DNA of 64,000 nucleotides, taken from a virus. This document shows positions 11,755-60,666 of this stretch, piece after piece. The position numbers and the translations under genes are program-made. Numbering within the stretch: the first letter of the stretch is position 1; every line of letters starts with the position of its first letter. The notes below the pieces were generated by a model that did not search any database, was not told where the DNA came from, and saw only the letters and a program-made list of their open reading frames with translations. The DNA lies in IMG/VR virus record IMGVR_UViG_3300002461_000777, positions 3,256-67,255 of that record; one strand, given 5' to 3'.

Positions 11755-11771
11755 TATGTTATAATTGAAAT

Positions 11772-12326
11772 ATGATCGATAATGTGCCGATTACATATAT
11801 TCCTGATTTTGTTGAATATCCAGATTTGACATTCACACAACTCTGGAATCAACTTGATTGGGTGCGACGTGAAAACACCCCACGATTTGAATATTATTGT
11901 AATGATAGTGGCAAGCCTTATACTTATGGACGAGGGAATGGTATAAGGACATATGAAGCACAACCTTATCATTATAGAATTCTGCAAATTCGACAGGACA
12001 TACAGAAACTCACCAATACTGCATTCGAAGTCTGTTTCTTGAATGGTTATCGTGATGGTCGTGATCAATTGGGATGGCATGCTGATGATTCTCCTGAAAT
12101 GGATGATGATAGGCCGATAGCCATTGTTTCTTTGGGTGCTAGGAGAGAGATTTATTTCAGACCACAAAATGACAAAGAGAATGTCACCAAGCTTTGGCTT
12201 GATTCTGGTAGTCTTTGCTTGATGGCCGCTGGCATGCAAGACACCCATTATCACCGAATTCCTAAATCTTCGGTGATAGGCTGTGGTCCAAGAATTAGCC
12301 TGACGTTTCGTGGGTTGGTCAAATAA
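11772..12326 (+). CDS. alkB: AlkB-family 2OG-Fe(II) dioxygenase (ALKBH2/3-like)
   Basis: LNGYRDGRD..GWHADD, IVSLGARR, HRIPK, RISLTFR. Confidence 0.9.
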   Translation: MIDNVPITYIPDFVEYPDLTFTQLWNQLDWVRRENTPRFEYYCNDSGKPYTYGRGNGIRTYEAQPYHYRILQIRQDIQKLTNTAFEVCFLNGYRDGRDQLGWHADDSPEMDDDRPIAIVSLGARREIYFRPQNDKENVTKLWLDSGSLCLMAAGMQDTHYHRIPKSSVIGCGPRISLTFRGLVK

Positions 12327-12365
12327 TTAATTGTATGAATTTCATTTTCATGTTATAATAGTTCT

Positions 12366-12773
12366 ATGAAATTCGCCGAATTCCTGAATGAGACGACAGA
12401 TCTGGATTATGATACTGCCAAAAAAGCCTTGGCTCATGCTAGAGATATAGTTAAGGGGCGGGTACCTGAGGTCGAGGAATTATTAATCAGAGATCCCCAT
12501 TGGGCTTTCCATTATGCCAAGAATGTTATCAAAGGTCGTTGGTCCGAAGCAGAAGATGTGATAGCAACCTCAGCTGGTCCTGCTTGTAATTATGCCCAGT
12601 ATGTTATCAAAGGTCGTTGGTCCGAAGCAGAAAAAGTAATTGCTGCTTCACCCGGTATCGCTCTCAATTACGCCAAGGATGTCATCAAAGGTCGTTTCGA
12701 GGCGGCGGAAGAGGGGATGAGTAAAGCACCTGCTGTGTGGCGTGAATATAAAAAATTATTCATGAAGAAATAG
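12366..12773 (+). CDS. helical-repeat protein with capsid-targeting-like N-terminus
   Basis: MKFAEFLNE-T; 26-aa repeats YAK.VIKGRWSEAE, also visible as 78-bp DNA repeats. Confidence 0.7.
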   Translation: MKFAEFLNETTDLDYDTAKKALAHARDIVKGRVPEVEELLIRDPHWAFHYAKNVIKGRWSEAEDVIATSAGPACNYAQYVIKGRWSEAEKVIAASPGIALNYAKDVIKGRFEAAEEGMSKAPAVWREYKKLFMKK

Positions 12774-12958: not shown

Positions 12959-13347
12959 TTTTCGATAACCACAAAGGGACCGAAATTTCTCGTTTTGAAT
13001 CCAGATACTTTCAGGAGATTAACGTAAATTTCGGTCTTTCTGTTATCATGCGAAGCAACAATCAATTCCCCGAATTCATTCAACCAATTCTGGATTATCT
13101 CTTTGAATTGTTTCCGATTGAAATTGCCCAACTGTGAATTCCCCTTTTCACCCTGTTGTTGCAAGTCAGTGAAATCTTTTCCCTTTAATTGCATGGCGAT
13201 CTGATACATCTTCATCATCTTATTATACACCACAAACAATTCATAATCACCACATTCAGCTTCATCAGCCACAACATTTCCTGTAGCTTTTAGCAATTGT
13301 TCTGCTTTATCGGTCAGACCTTCTGCAAGGAAATCTTTGAATTTCAT
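12955..13347 (-). CDS. putative capsid-targeted internal protein
   Basis: MKFKDFLAE-G. Confidence 0.65.
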   Translation of the reverse strand: MKFKDFLAEGLTDKAEQLLKATGNVVADEAECGDYELFVVYNKMMKMYQIAMQLKGKDFTDLQQQGEKGNSQLGNFNRKQFKEIIQNWLNEFGELIVASHDNRKTEIYVNLLKVSGFKTRNFGPFVVIEN

Positions 13348-18397: not shown

Positions 18398-18437
18398 TTG
18401 ATTGCCGCCAGCATCGATTCATGTTATAATGGATTTG

Positions 18438-18575
18438 ATGACATTTTACAAAATTAGTGCTGAGAGACCATCAAATGGTGGAATATATCAGAGGATTCAA
18501 GCTCGTTCCAGAATCCATGCCGTCGAAGCTTTCCTAAAATTGAATCCTGATGCGATTATTTGGAGCGTGGTATAA
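18438..18575 (+). CDS. hypothetical protein (45 aa, not in ORF track)
   Basis: MTFYKISAERP...; follows TGTTATAAT. Confidence 0.5.
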   Translation: MTFYKISAERPSNGGIYQRIQARSRIHAVEAFLKLNPDAIIWSVV

Positions 18576-23998: not shown

Positions 23999-25081
23999 TT
24001 AAATTGGCAATTTGTCTAATGCCAATGCGTATTGTGACACGCGATCAACGGGCTTCTTAACTGTTTCTGTTGCTGGCTTATCATTGATAGCAGCTTCAGT
24101 CAGAGGCACTGATGTCGCAGAAGTGGACTTGCGAGTAAAATAACTTTCTTTCAATTGTTTAGCTTTTTCGCCAAATTCCTTGCGATTTGTGTATTCCACA
24201 TTCTCAAGCAAATCTCGCAGCTTAGCAACTTGGGTTGATGTCAAGCCTTCACGAAGTGACTGTACAACGGCTTCGCGCTTGCTGAGATTAACCTGTTCAT
24301 TCAACTCTCCGTTAAGTTTGATTTCGTTGTTCAAACGAGTTTCAAGTTTGGTAACCTGCTCTTCGAGTGTCTGTACTAAATCAACCTTATTGGCCGGAAC
24401 ATCAATGTAATGCTCTTCGAAAAGATTCTTCAGACGGGACATGAATGACTCTGACAATTCGGTACGGATACCTCGTTCGAGTTCAATCGTATGTTCCTTC
24501 TTCCAATTCTCAACAATTACATCAACATATTTGCCGACTTTGTTTTCGAGAATAGATTCATTTTCTTTGGCTTCTGCAATGTGACGATTGCGGTTAGCAA
24601 TCGCACGCTCGAACAGTCGCTTTGCATACTGACGCCGAATAGCGGTCGTATGTTCCTTGACTGACTTGCGAACAGCAGCTTCGAAAATTACACGTGCTTT
24701 TTCTTTGAAAGACTCATTCAGATCATCTTCCCCATCGAGCAATGCATCCATATGCTCCTTGACATCGATAGGCATTTCAGGATCTTCAAGTTCAGTATTT
24801 TCGTCTTCCTCATCGAGGTCCACTTCTACCGAATCTTCGTCTTCTTCTTCTAGTTCTTTCTTTTTGATATCGAAATCTTCGTCTTCCGTATCAGTTGCCA
24901 TTGGTGCGGTTGGTTCTTCTAAGCTAGTGCTGGCCTTGCTCTTAACCCCAGTAATGGGATTGGTAGCTTGAGGAGCCGTTGCTGAAGGAACGCCAATTTT
25001 CGGATCAAGGCCACTCGGAGCGGAAGGCACTTCAACAGGCCCACCAATATCCAAGTTTTCTTTCAGTTTCTTTTTATTCAT
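23999..25081 (-). CDS. 22: prohead core scaffolding protein
   Basis: ESFKEKA..IFEAAV, IELERGIRTELSESF...LK.LF.EHYI.VP; upstream of gp23. Confidence 0.92.
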   Translation of the reverse strand: MNKKKLKENLDIGGPVEVPSAPSGLDPKIGVPSATAPQATNPITGVKSKASTSLEEPTAPMATDTEDEDFDIKKKELEEEDEDSVEVDLDEEDENTELEDPEMPIDVKEHMDALLDGEDDLNESFKEKARVIFEAAVRKSVKEHTTAIRRQYAKRLFERAIANRNRHIAEAKENESILENKVGKYVDVIVENWKKEHTIELERGIRTELSESFMSRLKNLFEEHYIDVPANKVDLVQTLEEQVTKLETRLNNEIKLNGELNEQVNLSKREAVVQSLREGLTSTQVAKLRDLLENVEYTNRKEFGEKAKQLKESYFTRKSTSATSVPLTEAAINDKPATETVKKPVDRVSQYALALDKLPI

Positions 25082-25189
25082 ATCACTCTCCGTAGTGGAT
25101 TGCGCAAATATTTATGCAAATATTCACAAAGCATATAGGTATTTAATAGTTACTTTACGAGATGATTATTAAAATGATATAATAGTTCT

Positions 25190-27212
25190 ATGAATGCAAC
25201 AGATCTCAAAGCAGGAATGATTTTAGCTAAGAAAATTACTCAGTCTCCACAAGATGAAGATGCTCGTTTGATCATTCTTGACGTCCGAAAGAATGATCAA
25301 AACGATCTAACAGAAATTTTGGTCTGGGAACTTGGTATAAATGTTCTGGGTGGGTGGATACCCGCCGATTCGATTTTGTTTTTCTGGGAAGTCATAGCCG
25401 TACCAAGCACCCCACAGCCAACTCTTATTAGTAATATTCATGACTTGGAGGGATATCTATAATGATACTCTGGTACAACATTGAAGAATTACCTGCCGAT
25501 GGTAAGATCTATGATGGTGCAGATTGTGGTGCTGAACTGGTACGCCATATCCCGGCCACCGTCATGCATGTTGAACAATTACTTGCTTTGAAACCGGACG
25601 GGCTTCGTCGACGGATGCGTATACGGAATGGTAAATGGGGGAGTGCCGATCTCATTGGTGGGACGATTGGGGATACGAAATGATTTATCGGGTCTATTGT
25701 GATCATCGATATGTGGGTAGTGGCAGAACTTATGATGAGGCTGTCTTAATCTCTCTTAATTACGATGTCTACGAAATAATCGTGATTGAGACCACCACCA
25801 AAGATGCTCCTCTAGAATTGTCTCGAAGGAAACATACTGTTAGGTCAACACCAAAGACAAATGCAGAAGCTTTTAGAGTCGGTTTGTAAACATTACTTGA
25901 TCCGAAAGTTCAAACGTGGTAAAATTGTCTTATGATCACCTTTGAAGAAGCACAAGAAATGATGGTTATTACAGACCGTTTAAATGGCTTGATGTCATCC
26001 GAAGATTATGGCTACTATCTCGAAGCCAAGGGGGAAATCGAAGCCGAACGAGCCGTCGAGCGCTATTACGAGGATCGTGGTTGGCAAGAAGCTCTAATGG
26101 AGAGCTATGTTGAATCAGGATTCATTGCAAGGTTCTGATATGCCAAACTATATGAAAGCGGGGTTCTGATATGCCAAACTATATGAAAGCGGGGTTCTGA
26201 TATGCCAAACTATATGGAAGAAGCATTTGCTCCAGCCACAGCACAATATGCTTACGAAGTACAAAAAGACACTTGGGGCCATCTGGCTTTAAAACGCAAT
26301 CGCAAATACCATGGTCATATGATTTTCTCTCATGTCGGTTATGGTGGTCATCTTGCGATTATTTACTCCGAATGGAATGGTCTGGAGGATTCACCATGGT
26401 TGTATAATGCCATGGAAGAATTCGCCTTTGGCCTCTCGGGTAGTACTGATGATGTAGTTCAGGGTGCTGTGTATCGTTTTGATGGTATGGTGAGGAACTA
26501 TAAATTCGTTGGTACTCGCTCTGTACTTTACATGCCGAAGGGGATCGCTTAAATGGTTGGATCAATCGAAGAAAGAGGAACGAACTTGGGACAGAATGAC
26601 AAAGTCAGAATGATGCCAGTATTAACCAGCGGATATCAGAAATTGGGTTTCGTGGCTAAACTGGTTGACCAAAACGATAGTGATATCGCCTTCTTCAAGG
26701 ACTACAATATCGCCAACACCTTTATGGAATCGTATAACAAAAGGATTGATAATGACTCACGATGAAATGCTGAGTCAGAGGCAATTCAATTTTTATTGTC
26801 GTTTTGGTTTGAATCTAATATACCTGACTGTTGGTGTCGAATTGGATATAACCAAAATGAACGGTAAAAATGTTGCTGTTCGAGTTACTCCCCGATGGAC
26901 AACAACGAGATGGATGTCATCAGGATGGATGGGTAAAATTATGTTGGGTTTTCAGTTCGAGGTGCTACTGTCACAATGACTTCAACATTCGGTTTACAAG
27001 TAAATCTTGGTTATGTCGCCTTCGAAGTCGATATCTATTATTCTTCATTCTTCGCAGAGAAACTCCATCGCCGCAACAAATTTCAATTAATCCGAACTGA
27101 GACCGGGATTTGTTGTGGCAACAAAAACAATACACGTATCAATTTGCAAATGATAAAGCGGCCAAGGTGGATCTTTGGTGTAAGTTGCTTTACTTTAAGC
27201 CAGAACGATTAG
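25190..27212 (+). other. plus-strand island of about 9 small hypothetical genes inserted between genes 21 and 22
   Basis: ORFs 25190-25462, 25462-25683, 25680-25889, 25932-26138, 26202-26552, 26553-26765, about 26752-26979, 26976-27212 with coupled starts and stops. Confidence 0.7.
26131..26217 (+). repeat. 31-bp tandem repeat, about 2.8 copies, spanning a stop-start junction
   Basis: GGTTCTGATATGCCAAACTATATGAAAGCGG starting at 26131, 26162, 26193. Confidence 0.92.
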
Positions 27213-30415: not shown

Positions 30416-30757
30416 TTATGTGACTGCGATTTCGACATCCAAACCACAAGCACGAAGACGGGAATAAACTGTCTGGCGATGTTGGGGTGAATTACCCTTC
30501 GTAGCATTTACTAGCTGTCTCAGACGATCAGTAGGGTCAGCAGTAATACCATAGTATACTTCATTACCGTTAGACACTTCAAAAATAGCGGTACGGATAG
30601 AATCCTTATCCTTCAACACACCACCACTGTTACAGCGCTCATTAAGTACTACTCGGTCGATTGTTTGGTTGATTAGGCGTGCTTGCTCTTCGCGAGCCTT
30701 GCCGGGAGAACCGCGCCACTTTACGACGCGAAAGGAGAATTGCTTGGTTTTTGCCAT
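30416..30757 (-). CDS. hypothetical protein, possibly permuted or degenerate GIY-YIG fold
   Basis: Start MAKTKQF with TATAAT 6 nt upstream; AIFEV.N...YYGIT..P..R. Confidence 0.45.
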   Translation of the reverse strand: MAKTKQFSFRVVKWRGSPGKAREEQARLINQTIDRVVLNERCNSGGVLKDKDSIRTAIFEVSNGNEVYYGITADPTDRLRQLVNATKGNSPQHRQTVYSRLRACGLDVEIAVT

Positions 30758-31738
30758 ACACCAATTATAATACCATTGAATCATTGCGTCTATCCAATAA
30801 ATCTTGTTATACTGTGTACAGATATGGACAGACTCCCATCGCTTTGTGTACCTTTTACTATCCACAACAAATACGAAGATGCTGAAACTAATAGAATGTA
30901 CAATCTTAGCCGATTTTTAGAACCTTTCTTTGGTCATCCTTTTAGACAATCCTCAAGCATCGAAGATACTGACCAAGCCACCGATCTCGTTCTCCTCAAT
31001 GACGATAGAACTAGGCTAGCTGTACGGTTCTTGAGGCTGAAGGGTAATTTGACCACCGATAATTTCACACGTTGTACTATCAGACATGAAGCTAAAGTGG
31101 GCTATACGGAACTGGAAAAATTGGAGAACAACATGAATCCCAATTTTCTATATTGTTCAGTCCAAGCTACATTTGGTAATCACATAGACAAAGTGCATGA
31201 AGTTGTGGTGATAGACATGAAGAATTTCAAAGAAGAAATCTCTCCATTAATCCGCAAACAGCCTTTCGTAACAATGTCAGATAAAGCTTGGGGTCGAAAC
31301 CACTATAATTTCCGATGGATGGATATCACTCCCGAAAAAATCTTGTTTCATTGGGCAGAGAATCACGTTTATGTCAATAAATTGAACATGTATTCGTGGC
31401 GAAATCAATTGGCTAGTATGTTATCGAATTACACATTGTTTTCCAAATATAACAGAACGCTGTCTGATGTTACAATGACTAGATGGCCGAACAATCCGAC
31501 CACACCGCAATGGAGATCTCTATTAACTCCCACGTTGATCAAAATCCCGCAATTCAGGATTGCTCCAGCATTAAGACCATTATCACAAAAGGAATACGAT
31601 GGGCTGTCTGGTTCTCCAGAACTCAAGAAATTATATGAGGGATGCACATCAATAGAAAATTGGTATAAAATGGTCAAATTTGTTATAGAATATGGAGATT
31701 CCTCTGAAGACTTTAGACTCCATACAGGAATATGTTAG
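30683..31738 (+). CDS. hypothetical protein (true start probably internal)
   Basis: Long ORF; 5' part overlaps divergent gene. Confidence 0.6.
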   Translation: MLFASLAGRTAPLYDAKGELLGFCHTPIIIPLNHCVYPINLVILCTDMDRLPSLCVPFTIHNKYEDAETNRMYNLSRFLEPFFGHPFRQSSSIEDTDQATDLVLLNDDRTRLAVRFLRLKGNLTTDNFTRCTIRHEAKVGYTELEKLENNMNPNFLYCSVQATFGNHIDKVHEVVVIDMKNFKEEISPLIRKQPFVTMSDKAWGRNHYNFRWMDITPEKILFHWAENHVYVNKLNMYSWRNQLASMLSNYTLFSKYNRTLSDVTMTRWPNNPTTPQWRSLLTPTLIKIPQFRIAPALRPLSQKEYDGLSGSPELKKLYEGCTSIENWYKMVKFVIEYGDSSEDFRLHTGIC

Positions 31739-46587: not shown

Positions 46588-48054
46588 ATGGAAAGCAACG
46601 AACCAATCGAGACGGAAATCGAAGAGAAAGCAAGATTCTTTGATCTTCTTATCAGCAAACCTTGGAATGTCAATGTCTACCCGAAGTCAGATGGTACGAA
46701 AGAATATATTGTTGTCAACTGGTTGCGGGGATGTTCGATGAGTAAAGGTAATACTGCCGTCGAAGCAATTAGGCTTGCAATCAAGACCGAAAAAGAAGGG
46801 ATCTAATAATGAACTACTACACAGAACTGACCATTGAAGACCTCAAACAGGGTTATGAAACCGAACCAGTCAAAACCATCCTCATGGCATCCAATTCAGA
46901 CCGTAGTGGTCGTTCGAAGAGGCTGGAGATGCGTGTTGATATCATGAACAATACCACAGAGTACGTAGCTACTAAGTCGCGGGGTGTTGGTGAGACCACG
47001 ACCTTAGCATATCCGAAGCTCGAAGATGCACTCGCCCAATACAACGAATTCTAACAGGAGAGACCAATGAGAAAAACACACATGCAGGAACTAGTCGATG
47101 CCGGATATGAAGTTGCAATGAAGGGTCAACCATGCGAAGCACCAACATCTCGTGAATTGGATCGTTCTGCATGGGAAACTGGGTGGCGAGATGGTCACAA
47201 AATCAAAGGCCGAATCGATCACGCCAAAATATCAGCAGAGGGTCAAAGGATGTGTATCGGAAGTGTTGCAGTCACGGTAACTGATGGTGAAGTCAAAGTG
47301 ACTTCGACTGTTGATGGATTTAAAGTGTGGGTGTGGGGAATTGAAGTATGACTATCAGTACTTTCATCATGAGTATCGAGAACTGGAATCTCTTAGCTCA
47401 CTGGGTCGGGATCATCGGTATTGGGTATCTGATCCTCATACTGTTCTGGAGCTTGTTTAAGCTCATCTTGCAAGCTCTGGTTTACATCGTGGCGGCTATA
47501 GCTGGATTCGCCCTTGTTGGGATTTGTTGGATGATTTTCTATTGCTTTAAATTATATTTTACTTAAAGGACAAAAAATGCCAAAAGAAAGATTGCTCATC
47601 GATGATATCTTGAAATATCACGGAATGTTCATGAAGGGTGTAGACGACACCAAAGATATGTCTCATTGGATTTATCAAGCGATGTTGGTGGGCACTACAA
47701 TTGGCCTCAAAAATTCCAGTCCTAATACCAATATTCTGGGAGAGGCTATCGAAGATATCATCCAAAGTGCTCGGAACAAAAATGAAAATTAAACCCGGCT
47801 TGTACGCTACCAAAAACGGCAATGTCGTCACCATTGTTAAGAAATTGGCAGAGGGGATTGTGGGGCATAGTAGGTCCTGTGTATTCCCAAGGGTGCATTG
47901 GGATGTCGAAGGTAAATTCATCGCCAACGAGCTTTACCCGCATTTTGGTGATGGATTCGACTTATCCCATAAAGTTGACAAACGAACAACTATCGAGGGT
48001 GATGGACGGAATTTTGACTGGGATAATCTCAGAGAAAAGAATGTGAGGTCATAA
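46588..48054 (+). other. run of six small accessory genes
   Basis: ORFs 46588-46806, 46809-47054, 47067-47351, 47348-47566, 47577-47792, about 47782-48054. Confidence 0.65.
47067..47351 (+). CDS. ribosome modulation factor (Rmf)-like domain protein
   Basis: AGY...MKGQPCEAP...LDRSAWETGWRDG matches Rmf GY..G..G...CP......W..GW pattern. Confidence 0.5.
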   Translation: MRKTHMQELVDAGYEVAMKGQPCEAPTSRELDRSAWETGWRDGHKIKGRIDHAKISAEGQRMCIGSVAVTVTDGEVKVTSTVDGFKVWVWGIEV

Positions 48055-48056
48055 AG

Positions 48057-48494
48057 ATGATGTTGAATAATAAGGATTTTGTTCTATATTCGATCACAAA
48101 TCGATACATTAGTACCATCCAAAAAGGCATTCAGACAGCCCACGCAGCGGTTGAATTAGTTAAGAGCCATCCGAGGGACAATCATATTTTTGATTGGGCT
48201 GACAAACACAAGACTATTAGGGTGCTTGAAACAGGATCGAATCAAGATCTCTTGGATTTAAAATATAATTTATCAGAAGCAGATATTAGATATGGTATGT
48301 TCATGGAACCAGAGCTATCGAACACCATTACGGCAATTTGTTTTGTGATTGATTGGTCGTTGTTTGAAGTCATGGATAACTTCGATAACATTTTTACCCC
48401 AGAGCAACAACTTGACTTCATGGCTAGTAATATTGAAGCTGTTTCAATGTTCAGAGTCTTGCGAATGATCAAACCCCTAAGGTCCGCTACTTAG
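48057..48494 (+). CDS. peptidyl-tRNA hydrolase 2 (PTH2)-like protein
   Basis: QKGIQ.AHA..E, W....KTI.VL, F.EPEL.N..TAI. Confidence 0.65.
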   Translation: MMLNNKDFVLYSITNRYISTIQKGIQTAHAAVELVKSHPRDNHIFDWADKHKTIRVLETGSNQDLLDLKYNLSEADIRYGMFMEPELSNTITAICFVIDWSLFEVMDNFDNIFTPEQQLDFMASNIEAVSMFRVLRMIKPLRSAT

Positions 48495-50704: not shown

Positions 50705-50780
50705 TGGAGCCGTCCGACAGGATCGAACTGTCGACCTCCTATTTACAAGACAGGCGCTCTACCAACTGAGCTAGGACGGC
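50705..50780 (-). tRNA. trnT: tRNA-Thr(UGU) with encoded CCA
   Basis: GCCGTCC acceptor, D-arm GCTCAGTTGGTAGAGC, anticodon arm CCTGT-CTTGTAA-ATAGG, T-loop GTTCGATC, ends CCA. Confidence 0.97.
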
Positions 50781-50809: not shown

Positions 50810-51835
50810 TTATTTACTGCTCATAATCAGAAGGTTTTGACCTTTGATCAATTTACGATTCACAGAAGTACTCTGAACGAAAATATCAAAGTCAGTATTG
50901 GTATCGGGATTAACCTTGACATCATGGTGGGGCAGATTCAGAACTTGTCTGGCCTCAGCACCTTTATACAGTTTCTTCTTCTGTTTGTCATAAACCAATA
51001 TGGCCTTGTGATGTTGAATCAATTCGGATTTCGTCAACTGATAATAAGCCGAACCTTTGACGAAATTACGGTTGATTGACTTTTCGACGAATGTTCTGAT
51101 CGGTAAATCAGCACTCACAGGGTAAATACGATATTTTCTTCCATCGACTTCCTGTAAATTGCTCTTCACAGTGTTTTGATTCAAGTCCGATAATTTCAGT
51201 TTAAGCAGACCTTTATAACCACGAACACCCTGAGTGCGAGCTTCCATGAAATTATCGGCAGATTCGCTGATCTCATCGATCATTTTATCCAAACCAGCTT
51301 CAGTGACATTCCAAGTCTCAATACATTCAGCAGGAATTCCATAATTCTTGGCTTGAGCTACACCTTCCCGATTTGGAACAAGGACGCTCAAAGTCCAATT
51401 CTCTTCAGTATTGACTTTTTCAATCTCTGATTTGATAGATTGGGGGTTGAATATTCGGCTACGATTCTCATCACCATCAGTTACGACATATCCGATGAAA
51501 GCATGGTCACCGTATTTGACAGGAATGGTCTTTAAATCCTTGATTGTCAAACCGATACCATCCATCAGTGCTGTCATACCACTTGCTTTGAGTTTTCCAG
51601 CTAAGGAACCCAATCGGGCTACGTCAACATCAAAGACGACACATTCAACTTTATCCGCAAAAGTGAATATCGACAAACGAGTTTCTTGGTTTAATTTAAC
51701 TGATTTTGCTTTTAGTCTTTCAACAGTCTTATCGATCAATGTTGTCATTTGATCAATAAGGTGGGACATGGAAGACGAAGTATCTATCACGAGGGCATAA
51801 TGATTGATATATTGGTAATAATATTCTTTGTACAT
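50810..51835 (-). CDS. von Willebrand factor A domain protein
   Basis: MIDAS-type DTSSSM, GMTALMD, VVTDGDEN. Confidence 0.88.
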   Translation of the reverse strand: MYKEYYYQYINHYALVIDTSSSMSHLIDQMTTLIDKTVERLKAKSVKLNQETRLSIFTFADKVECVVFDVDVARLGSLAGKLKASGMTALMDGIGLTIKDLKTIPVKYGDHAFIGYVVTDGDENRSRIFNPQSIKSEIEKVNTEENWTLSVLVPNREGVAQAKNYGIPAECIETWNVTEAGLDKMIDEISESADNFMEARTQGVRGYKGLLKLKLSDLNQNTVKSNLQEVDGRKYRIYPVSADLPIRTFVEKSINRNFVKGSAYYQLTKSELIQHHKAILVYDKQKKKLYKGAEARQVLNLPHHDVKVNPDTNTDFDIFVQSTSVNRKLIKGQNLLIMSSK

Positions 51836-51929
51836 TTTTACTTTCTAATTCACTATAATACCATAATTTACTAGTTTTGGTCCATTAGAGAACCTTACAG
51901 TTATTTATATAGTTAATCAAAAGAATACC

Positions 51930-51958
51930 TTGTCGGCTTAACATGGCCATGTTATAAT
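51930..51958 (+). promoter_or_regulatory. sigma70-type promoter of the large ncRNA
   Basis: TTGTCG-N17-TATAAT. Confidence 0.8.
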
Positions 51959-51964
51959 GGTTTT

Positions 51965-52395
51965 GTAAGCGTGAACGGATGGTGCACACATTAGTTCACT
52001 TGGTCCAGACTGATGGATTCTGGATGACATTCCTATACCTCCATCAAACGTAAGCCGCCACACGTGGTACCACAAATGTCATCATCCTGATGAGGGATTT
52101 GACTAGTAAGATGGCGGTGAAGCTCCAGCATTTGGATGTGGATATCTAGGAGCGAGGTCCTGCAAAGCTTGGACGGAATATTCACAAAGCATAACCCAAT
52201 CGCGAAGACAACATTTATCTCGGGTCTAGCGATAGTTGAAGGAAAGAAATTCTCTTCTGGGTTCGAGTTCTCAGGATAAACCATCTGAGGTAAAATAAGT
52301 TAATGGAGATGTTCTTGTGACCCGAAGCCAAGTTCACTCCGAGTTCCTCAATGAACTATACATTGAGTGGTGGAGGGTCCGTTAGGACCCCTATA
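51965..52395 (+). ncRNA. large structured ncRNA, ROOL-like, apparently circularly permuted
   Basis: Own promoter and terminator, no credible ORF, many long-range helices and a pseudoknot; family assignment from recalled motifs only. Confidence 0.65.
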
Positions 52396-52442
52396 GAAAA
52401 CCCGCTGGAAGCAATTCTCATCTCTGCTTCCAGCGGGTTTTC
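52396..52442. terminator. strong bidirectional terminator
   Basis: 17-bp perfect stem GAAAACCCGCTGGAAGC / GCTTCCAGCGGGTTTTC. Confidence 0.9.
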
Positions 52443-52459
52443 TGTGTTTGGATTGTAAA

Positions 52460-53974
52460 CTAATTTACGACGATCGAAGCGGCTGATGGCATGGTGAATG
52501 TGATATTGGCATTGACGTTACCCAAATCCACAATCGTACCACCATTCAGAGCTAGAGAGCTAAGAGTAACTTGGCCGGGTTGAGCGTAATCAGCAGCAAC
52601 TACCTTGTACATGAAGGTCAACTGTTGAGTACCAGAACCAACAAAGTAATTCAAATATCTCTGAACGCCATTGATGGTGATCGGAACTCTAGGAGTACCA
52701 GTCACTACGACAGGCTTAGAGAATTTCACTTTGAGAACAATGTTCTGACCCGTCGAATAGGGGCTGACATTAATCGGAGGTACTTCGGAGATCACAGCGG
52801 GTGTATTATCCACAATGATACCAGAAGTGCTCGGAGCGGTGAATGTCAACACAGCATTGTTGGTTGATGCATCTCTGATTGTACCACCATTTAATACAAT
52901 TGGTGAGAGAATAGAAATCTGACCAGCAGGACCTTCGTCACCAGCAAGAATGGCATATCTGAAGAGGAGTGTATCCGTAGTTGATCCTGATGTATAAGCG
53001 GCGATTCTGACGTTTTCACCAATTCTTACTTGGATTCGCGGAACACCGACGACGGTTACGGGTTCATCAAATACAACAGTCACATCGAAGTTACTCGGAT
53101 TCTTGTAATAACCATCAGCAATCGTGGTCACGGTAGTAACTACAGGAGCCTGTGTATCGGTAATTGTGACAGTGTCAATGTTCGAAGCGGCGGGAAGTGT
53201 CAAAGTTGACATGGCGTTGCCAGCACGATCGATAATTGTCCCGCCATTAAGACTTACGTTAGCTGGCAGATCAACCTCAGTTGCCAATGCCACAATACCA
53301 TTAGGTACAACGGCTTGGAAAGCATGGGTTGTGGTGCCCGATCCACCGATGTAGTCAGCATTCACGTTGGTACCATCCAAAACCATTACGATTCGAGGAG
53401 TGCCAGTGACATTCACGATCTCCGAAGAAGTCACTATTAACATAATAGCATCACCAGAGGAATATGAGGAAGCCAAATTGGCTGTAGCGGTGAATGTGGG
53501 TAATGCAGTGTCAACGGTAGCAGCCACGGTTGGAGCAGTGAAGGTCAATACAGCATTGTTGAGTGCTGTATCTCTAATCGTTCCACCATTAAGCGTGACT
53601 GGAGAGGCGATTGCTACAGCACCAGTTTCGGCGGCGGCAACCACTTTTCGGAATACCAATCGATTAGTACCACTACCCGAAACATAATCCCAATTTTTTG
53701 AAGTTGCATCGAAAGTACCGACAATTCTGGGGGTACCAGTGACAACAACCACTTCATTGAAATAGACGGCCAGATCAATATTTTCATTAAGTTTGTACCA
53801 AGCTTTAGTTGGTGTTACGAATTCGACATAGGTGACATCGGGTGCACCACCAGCAGCATTCGCATTTCTGAAGGCGACCAAAAGTTCGCCTGTGATTGGG
53901 TCTTCCCAACCTCTATTTGTAGCAACCGCATCTGGTTTCCAGCGTGGTGGTTGATTCGCAGTCCAAAGAGCCAT
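52460..53974 (-). CDS. Ig-like repeat virion decoration protein (Hoc-like)
   Basis: N-terminal AVATNRGW...GELLVA; four repeats V.F.E.V.VTGTPRI...Y.SGSGT..L.F.Y.V...LNGGTI.D; TAAATA upstream. Confidence 0.75.
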   Translation of the reverse strand: MALWTANQPPRWKPDAVATNRGWEDPITGELLVAFRNANAAGGAPDVTYVEFVTPTKAWYKLNENIDLAVYFNEVVVVTGTPRIVGTFDATSKNWDYVSGSGTNRLVFRKVVAAAETGAVAIASPVTLNGGTIRDTALNNAVLTFTAPTVAATVDTALPTFTATANLASSYSSGDAIMLIVTSSEIVNVTGTPRIVMVLDGTNVNADYIGGSGTTTHAFQAVVPNGIVALATEVDLPANVSLNGGTIIDRAGNAMSTLTLPAASNIDTVTITDTQAPVVTTVTTIADGYYKNPSNFDVTVVFDEPVTVVGVPRIQVRIGENVRIAAYTSGSTTDTLLFRYAILAGDEGPAGQISILSPIVLNGGTIRDASTNNAVLTFTAPSTSGIIVDNTPAVISEVPPINVSPYSTGQNIVLKVKFSKPVVVTGTPRVPITINGVQRYLNYFVGSGTQQLTFMYKVVAADYAQPGQVTLSSLALNGGTIVDLGNVNANITFTMPSAASIVVN

Positions 53975-59088: not shown

Positions 59089-59118
59089 TTCGAAAGTATT
59101 TATCCTTGTTTATACTCG

Positions 59119-59149
59119 AAACCCCGATTCCTTTCGAAACCGGGGTTTG
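59119..59149 (-). terminator. terminator of tmRNA
   Basis: AAACCCCG...CGGGGTTT hairpin. Confidence 0.8.
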
Positions 59150-59716
59150 AGCTTCAGATTCCGTTCACAGGTTCTTTAAGACCCGGCAAGGCTAAGCAGC
59201 CATTGCAAGCTGACCATAGTTAGTGGCAGTTATAGTTTTACGCTATTCATTGTGACTATCAAATTCAACAACCACAACCAAGTAGTCGTCTACTTGTAGA
59301 CATTCCCCTTACCCTAATAACTTCCGATCGAAACCATGACGCCCCCACCAAACCACTCAGCAAAATCTTTGCTTTTGTAATCAACGCTGCTAACATTCTT
59401 TCATGACTTATGAGGTCAATGAATGCAGACACCGTACTAGAAATGATGAGTCTCTAGTCCGTCTGAGTGGTTTGGTGGAGGCGGTGGGAGTCGAACCCAC
59501 GTCTCAAAAGCTTTACTCTCAGGCTCTGAGATTAATTCACACCGTCCTCTAAATCCAACTTCCTGCAATCATATGGCCATATGATTGCTCAATAGCCAAT
59601 TTTTACTGGGACTTTAGTGGAGGATCGAACTCCTTTGAGGAAACCTAGATTTACTGATGATCCGGCCTTGAACCATCTAACCTAGTGACCCAGAGGACGG
59701 GATGAATTAATCTCGC
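59150..59716 (-). ncRNA. ssrA: two-piece (circularly permuted) tmRNA
   Basis: T-arm/acceptor GTGGGTTCGACTCCCACCGCCTCCACCA ends 59473, upstream of 5' end GGGGGCG at 59346; G3-U pair; resume motif ATAACT-GCC; tag ATNYGQLAMAA* at 59227-59192. Confidence 0.92.
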
Positions 59717-60415: not shown

Positions 60416-60429
60416 GTTATAATAACATT

Positions 60430-60666
60430 ATGAAAATCTTTCTAATCAAAACTGTCCTGATACTGATTCTGAGTATCATTTGTTTTCTGCCAACGGAGAT
60501 TTATTTGGTATTTCGTTGGATCGCAAGTCCTACAGGATTCTGGCAAGAATTCTTGATGGGAGTCACTGGTCTTTTTGTCTTGGGAGGAGTCCAACTCATG
60601 ATGGGAATTGTCTGGGTGTGTGGTATATTTGCGATTGTCGTTGAGAAACCACAAAGAACCATATAA
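60430..60666 (+). CDS. membrane protein
   Basis: Two TM segments; TATAAT 6 nt before ATG. Confidence 0.6.
   Translation: MKIFLIKTVLILILSIICFLPTEIYLVFRWIASPTGFWQEFLMGVTGLFVLGGVQLMMGIVWVCGIFAIVVEKPQRTI

Follow-up and report, generated by a model that had tools for sequence, protein, structure and literature searches.

The 64,000-nt stretch of phage DNA analysed here (hereafter the window) probably carries a stand-alone non-coding RNA gene of about 480 nt on the plus strand, an orphan that is partly structured. The window makes up most of a 69.9-kb IMG/VR viral record estimated to be about 40% complete, and its source is taken to be an uncultured T4-like phage of freshwater or drinking water. 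The RNA unit fills, on the plus strand, a 624-nt gap between two minus-strand genes (Table 1). A preliminary description of this DNA had proposed a stand-alone non-coding RNA, and the proposal is supported by a promoter that belongs to a family within the phage, a terminator, the lack of a coding signal, a contig from an RNA library and sequence changes that preserve hairpins, from which we infer the strand and the ends. The RNA gene is probably real and functional, and there is good support for sequence constraint on the RNA, in which a few helices are constrained and one hairpin varies.

Table 1. Coordinates of the RNA unit, its predicted elements and the neighbouring genes (positions of the window)
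Feature	Position	Strand	Remarks
RMF-like ORF	47067-47351	+	Pfam PF04957, E 1.5e-5, 25.4 bits, just below the cut-off of 27.9
PTH2-like peptidyl-tRNA hydrolase ORF	48057-48494	+	PF01981, 23.4 bits against a cut-off of 23; PHROG 'hydrolase', E 5e-26
tRNA-Thr	50705-50780		About 1.2 kb from the RNA unit
VWA-like gene	50810-51835	minus	One flank of the RNA unit
Sigma-70-type promoter TTGTCG-N17-TATAAT	51930-51958	+	TG extension (caTGTTATAAT); score 10/12
Perfect 16-nt palindrome TAACATGG/CCATGTTA (whole: TAACATGGCCATGTTA)	51939-51954		In the promoter spacer, overlapping the -10 box
Predicted primary transcript	51965-52449	+	About 480 nt; start placed 7 nt past the -10 box
5' hairpin GUGAAC/GUUCAC	51971-51999	+	17-nt loop with palindrome GUGCAC; invariant in the variant
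Hairpin GUCCAGA/UCUGGAU	52003-52025	+	Compensatory 52006 C>U with 52022 G>A
9-bp helix GAUGACAUU/AAUGUCAUC	52023-31/52075-83	+	100% complementary; invariant in the variant
83-aa ORF	52036-52284	minus	Reported by gene callers in three assemblies
7-bp helix GCCGCCA/UGGCGGU	52054-60/52112-18	+	Closes a sub-domain with two inner hairpins
Most conserved block	52117-52214	+	98 nt, no change in the variant; includes the GUGGAUAU/AUAUUCAC helix
47-aa ORF	52136-52279	+	In the most conserved block, on the strand of the promoter
Helix GUGGAUAU/AUAUUCAC	52138-45/52178-85	+	Inside the invariant 98-nt block
Block with T-loop-like GGUUCGAGU	52255-52290	+	One change in the variant, in a loop
Variable patch	52300-52346	+	Sequence differs; hairpin from the same GG in both variants
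Hairpin CUCAAUG/CAUUGAG	52347-52367	+	CUCGCU/AGCGAG in the variant; kept with a different sequence
Hairpin GGGUCC-GUUA-GGACCC	52375-52390	+	Unchanged in the variant
Perfect 19-bp terminator hairpin	52395-52413/52425-52443	both	11-nt loop; U-rich tail on each strand
504-aa repeat protein gene	52460-53974	minus	Other flank, convergent with the RNA unit
Permuted (two-piece) tmRNA	59101-59565	minus	82.9 bits against RF04321; tag ATNYGQLAMAA

The promoter named in the preliminary description is present on the plus strand and possesses a TG extension besides. Its extended -10 word, TGTTATAAT, occurs six times in the 64-kb window against 1.15 expected, always on the plus strand, and four of the six copies are followed 6-7 nt downstream by an ATG that opens an ORF. 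Moreover, the arrangement TATAAT-N6-ATG is found six times in the window (1.2 expected; none of 100 shuffles reaches six). Judging from these sequence patterns, the phage seems to make many leaderless mRNAs from such promoters, a feature that may serve as a clue to its host. TATAAT boxes exactly 6 nt before an ORF-opening ATG were observed at 11760-11774, 12354-12368, 25178-25192 and 60418-60432 on the plus strand and at 13213-13227 and 30755-30769 on the minus strand; a further one, at 18422-18440, has a spacing of 7 nt. Because the leaderless-type promoters fix the distance between the -10 box and the start at 7 nt, the RNA is suggested to begin at about 51965. The 16-nt palindrome of the promoter spacer does not recur in the other five TGTTATAAT promoters of the window, and may represent a candidate operator for a dimeric regulator.

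At the other end of the unit, the preliminary description had reported a 17-bp terminator. The hairpin exists, but it is 19 bp long, perfect and two-way, and the predicted transcript ends in the U-rich tail beyond it. This predicted terminator is one that would work in both directions, and so would be common to the RNA unit and the convergent gene of the 504-aa protein.

All or part of the DNA of the RNA unit is contained in 13 public runs from seven studies, two of the runs being freshwater metatranscriptomes, and the RNA libraries that contain the region come from two studies. Four runs were compared with positions 51400-53000 at a likeness of at least 80%. One RNA run (X11) yielded a single 433-nt contig with a depth of 14.2, which spans 51974-52400 alone, beginning 9 nt past the predicted start and ending at the foot of the terminator hairpin, while another (X12) yielded a 168-nt contig on 52059-52223. 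The extent of the X11 contig is what a discrete transcript would give, which is good but indirect evidence, as such contigs show neither the strand nor the true ends nor the level of an RNA. The missing cover of the flanks in the RNA libraries means only that the X11 contig stops there. Carry-over of DNA is possible for contigs from RNA libraries; the best explanation is nevertheless that the RNA accumulates sufficiently to be assembled from lake metatranscriptomes.

The X11 contig represents a variant of the RNA that differs from the window by 40 substitutions and 12 gap positions. The first 326 nt are 94% identical (14 substitutions, 13 of them transitions, and a 6-nt insertion), a 65-nt patch at 52300-52365 has an identity of about 53%, and positions 52366-52400 are 100% identical. 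Five near-identical assemblies have the same RNA and therefore show no variation, and identical copies come from assemblies of activated-carbon and drinking-water metagenomes. With two sequence variants known, covariation is thin; what the single variant offers are two compensatory pairs and one rebuilt hairpin.

Several local structure elements can be recognised in the RNA. All the helices listed in the preliminary description are present as sequence, including GTGAAC/GTTCAC, GATGACATT/AATGTCATC, GTGGATAT/ATATTCAC, TCGGGTC/GACCCGA, CTCAATG/CATTGAG and GGGTCC/GGACCC, and the T-loop-like GTTCGAGT is found as well. However, comparative support extends only to 52003-09/52019-25, 52054-60/52112-18 and 52347-53/52361-67, and TCGGGTC/GACCCGA is not kept in the variant. 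The pairing of GCCGCCA with TGGCGGT, described earlier as a pseudoknot, forms in the local folds of both variants; in this helix 52056 C>U is compensated by 52116 G>A, and 52058 C>U leaves a U-G pair. The 9-bp helix crosses it, and the two would give a pseudoknot topology if both form. Within the T-loop-like block there are two competing hairpins (UUCUGGG/CUCAGGA or UCUCAGG/UCUGAGG), and ARAGORN found no tRNA in this block. The hairpin of the variable patch is strong in the variant (-15.5 kcal/mol, z -4.7) and weak in the window (-10.7 kcal/mol, z -1.2), while the adjacent hairpin at 52347-52367 exceeds 99.3% of the shuffles in stability, in one variant as in the other (p about 0.007 each). 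One-sided changes at 52058, 52073 and 52084 give G-U pairs on the plus strand and A-C mismatches on the minus strand, so that they pair on the plus strand only, in agreement with the strand of the promoter. When the substitutions were permuted to random sites, at least two compensatory pairs arose in 2.9% of the trials for stems of at least 7 pairs and in 28% (p 0.28) for stems of at least 5 pairs. Palindromic loop motifs (GUGCAC and GUGGUACCAC) are, by estimate, no more numerous than expected by chance.

The RNA had also been called ornate, which is a weak claim. Folding of the whole region gives a z-score of -4.8, but the terminator is its source, and we therefore dropped this value as evidence of structure. 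The 430-nt body without the terminator has a z-score of -1.5 on the plus strand, which resembles the controls (-1.2 +/- 1.3 in 24 windows of the same phage), and in a threading test the substitutions of the variant preserve the minimum-energy fold no better than random ones do. Both the minimum-energy structure and the two-sequence alifold structure were unstable and had no support from the threading test, and were rejected as a global fold. Because the z-score of the body, the threading and the unkept helix speak against an elaborate fold, only local elements are listed in Table 1, and we rate such a fold as less probable than the stand-alone non-coding RNA itself.

The unremarkable folding energy of the body would also be expected if the transcript were a by-product, or if the locus acted only in cis at the level of DNA or transcription and the RNA fold had no function, for instance as a promoter-terminator pair that insulates the two minus-strand genes from each other, as a brake by which antisense transcription limits read-through into the VWA-like gene, or as an R-loop primer at an origin. 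The palindrome in the promoter, the lack of a wider family and the variability of the slot among relatives (see below) fit such an explanation too. It seems unlikely, however, given that a 5' part of 326 nt is conserved at 94% beside a patch of about 53%, that two helices show compensatory changes and one hairpin has been re-formed from a new sequence, that the G+C content of the RNA region is raised (45.8% versus 40.2% for the window), and that the RNA assembles from RNA libraries.

The coding potential of the unit was examined in the light of the earlier statement that it has no credible ORF. ORFs do exist, one of 83 aa on the minus strand and one of 47 aa on the plus strand, but neither looks coding. 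We consider it quite improbable that a small protein is the product of the unit, whether of 47 aa with a long leader or of 83 aa. Both ORFs remain open in the variant with the 6-nt insertion in frame, the 47-aa ORF lies in the most conserved block on the strand of the promoter, and the 83-aa ORF was called in three assemblies. On the other hand, no relative of the 83-aa ORF was found in 5.8 billion proteins, and no small-protein relative of the 47-aa ORF in 1.84 billion representatives. The matches of the latter were to three long repeat proteins only, one of them a 2329-aa S-layer repeat protein, and were rejected as sums of weak matches to one Ig-like repeat. The codon scores of the two ORFs, 0.067 and 0.031 per codon, are typical of spurious ORFs nested in real genes (median 0.027), among which the lower score lies at the median and the higher at the 70th percentile, as against 0.26 +/- 0.12 for real genes. 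The changes in the variant are nearly all non-synonymous (seven versus two synonymous in the 83-aa ORF; two versus none, plus the insertion, in the 47-aa ORF). Neither ORF is preceded by a Shine-Dalgarno motif, although many genes of this phage also lack one, and no minus-strand promoter is present in 52285-52395. Moreover, conservation and hairpin-preserving changes reach far beyond both ORFs.

As a non-coding RNA, the transcript might act as a sponge of the CsrB/RsmZ type, which titrates a host protein of the CsrA/RsmA type by means of GGA motifs. Like these sponges, it is a long RNA with many GGA and GGAU motifs and its own promoter and terminator. Positions 51965-52394 contain 14 GGA, a count that no 430-nt window of either strand exceeds (mean 5.6), and seven GGAU against 2.9 in dinucleotide shuffles (p about 0.01), three of them being GGAUG. 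The GGA count itself is, however, not significant against dinucleotide shuffles (p 0.07), and the variant lacks two of the 14 GGA, one of which disappears through a change that keeps the pairing intact. In CsrB the density of GGA is about twice as high, and the motifs of the present RNA are neither clearly conserved nor clearly located in loops. No link to csrA was found, nor any CsrB/Rsm match in the Rfam scan at E<=10, and a sponge function appears very unlikely.

The preliminary description had further suggested a circularly permuted ROOL RNA, in which ROOL-like segments would occur in a changed order. This reading is rejected by tests of both sequence and structure models, and membership in ROOL, whether permuted or ordinary, is hardly to be expected any longer. 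In its favour, the RNA is borne by a phage, is a few hundred nucleotides long and lies about 1.2 kb from a tRNA, as the preliminary description had correctly noted; both the tRNA-Thr and the tmRNA occur in the neighbourhood, a context that does not define the family. However, when both strands of 51600-52800 were compared by cmscan with all 4227 families of Rfam (E<=10, local matches included), no match to ROOL, GOLLD or OLE appeared. The permissive scan gave only microRNA-type matches on the terminator hairpin and other matches at chance level, and none of the other families of Rfam 15 (RNase P, tmRNA, group I/II introns, 6S, CsrB/Rsm and ribozymes among them) was relevant at E<=10. The ROOL model RF03087 (gathering threshold 99.1 bits) has no match to the RNA unit on either strand, not even a local fragment, and finds nothing in the whole record at E<=10. 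As a positive control, 101 bacterial genomes were searched with the same model, and one of them yielded a ROOL of 338.9 bits flanked by four tRNAs. Against this control joined head to tail, which mimics a permutation, BLAST and nhmmer showed no similarity, and no 9-mer is shared with it (one ROOL compared). None of the four supposedly ROOL-like segments (GAACGGATGGTGCA, GTGGATAT, AACCCAAT and AGGTAAAATAAG) is present in the control ROOL on either strand. RF01998 is a group II intron model and not GOLLD; its weak match (E 0.35) elsewhere in the record was set aside as irrelevant.

The RNA nevertheless resembles ROOL (RF03087) in being a stand-alone, phage-borne non-coding RNA of several hundred nucleotides near tRNA genes, but it differs in its length (about 430-480 nt versus 574 model positions) and in the absence of a model match, of sequence similarity and of a thermodynamic sign of an elaborate fold. 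ROOL and GOLLD RNAs adjoin tRNA islands in phages, and a link to translation has been proposed for both in this setting; ROOL is abundant and of unknown function, while GOLLD, near tRNAs, rises during phage lysis (PMC12286853). GOLLD, OLE and raiA are likewise large bacterial or phage RNAs of unknown function, but the present RNA matches none of them at E<=10.

Searches for homologues were negative throughout. Neither distant blastn nor megablast detected any in 50,697 phage records, nor did nhmmer and blastn in 80 viral loci with the VWA-like neighbour gene, and BLAST of 47 whole related viral records gave only chance matches of 14-27 nt. Exact words from the invariant blocks were scanned for in IMG/VR, in JGI metagenome contigs and in 185,579 species genomes. 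The IMG/VR scans returned 21 chance matches in one case, none in another and one unrelated sequence in three copies in a third; the JGI contigs gave one chance match in a high-G+C bacterium, and two scans of species genomes gave 44 chance matches without nhmmer support. A search for related loci by each single flanking protein found nothing. At present, the RNA appears as an orphan with two variants and without a match to any catalogued RNA family.

The slot occupied by the RNA seems to differ between related phages. The nearest cultured relatives of the VWA-like protein have identities of 35-39% and are found in large myoviruses of Mycobacterium, Streptomyces, Synechococcus and Caulobacter. 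In a phage whose VWA-like neighbour protein is 68% identical, a small protein gene replaces the RNA; it is divergently transcribed and preceded by a similar TGTTATAAC box. Because this relative possesses a small protein gene instead, the slot is regarded as accessory. The ORF in this slot (L008:1-351, upstream of the VWA-like gene) encodes a small Cys-rich protein (CPNC...C..G).

Several genes related to translation are located within 5-7 kb of the RNA, namely the tRNA-Thr, the permuted tmRNA, the RMF-like ORF and the PTH2-like hydrolase gene. At gathering scores, the Rfam scan of the whole window reports the tRNA-Thr and the permuted tmRNA only. The RMF-like and PTH2-like ORFs together with the tRNA-Thr and the tmRNA resemble an accessory island directed at translation. 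This gene neighbourhood suggests a link of the RNA to translation, as an association only. Antisense matches between the RNA and other parts of the window do not exceed 12 nt, which is chance level.

Under the reading that we favour, the stand-alone non-coding RNA, the RNA polymerase of the host would initiate near 51965 at the extended -10 promoter, of the same family as those that would drive the leaderless mRNAs of the phage, and transcription would halt at the two-way terminator (52395-52443). Its 5' two-thirds are strongly conserved and include at least two helices under constraint, one of which would close a small multi-hairpin sub-domain. The RNA also possesses the T-loop-like block, a peripheral hairpin that evolves fast and, before the terminator, two more hairpins in its 3' part. 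In T4-type phages, promoters of the sigma-70 type form the early class, and the RNA would therefore be made early by the host polymerase. It would presumably act in trans as a folded RNA. Since the accessory island holds the tRNA-Thr and the permuted tmRNA as well as the RMF-like and PTH2-like genes, it would most likely serve the phage in taking over the translation or RNA metabolism of the host, to judge by the neighbours alone. A more far-reaching and rather doubtful idea is that the RNA is the founding member of a new class, an abundant folded phage RNA that reprogrammes host translation together with the phage tRNA, tmRNA, RMF-like and peptidyl-tRNA-hydrolase-like genes, its conserved core being accompanied by a fast-evolving hairpin that would set the specificity for host or phage partners.

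A comparison may also be drawn with T4, whose accessory region contains the rnaC and rnaD genes as well as tRNA and internal-protein genes. RNAs C and D are stable non-coding RNAs of the tRNA region with no known function. The locus described here is likewise placed between a tRNA and tagged internal-protein-like genes. However, RNAs C and D have about 120-140 nt and are cut from a tRNA precursor, whereas the present RNA has about 480 nt and its own promoter and terminator.

Large RNAs of phages, for example ROOL and GOLLD, occur in abundance and assemble into RNA-only cages in the cases studied, and no function is known for any of them. Each independent large RNA from another phage lineage helps to ask what such RNAs share. 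The value of the present one is limited for now, as only two variants of this orphan are known, the phage is uncultured and the fold is only partly supported. Its interest lies in its occurrence in a T4-type phage, near genes related to ribosomes and tRNA, and in its visibility in environmental RNA, and the conserved core and the variable hairpin constitute a clear, testable split.

A 17-nt exact identity on the same strand, GAATATTCACAAAGCAT, is shared by the conserved core of the RNA (52177-52193) and positions 25119-25135 (BLAST E 0.001). The latter copy is located in the region of divergent promoters that separates the head scaffolding gene (23999-25081, minus strand) from a leaderless plus-strand gene, where it adjoins the direct repeats GCAAATATT.
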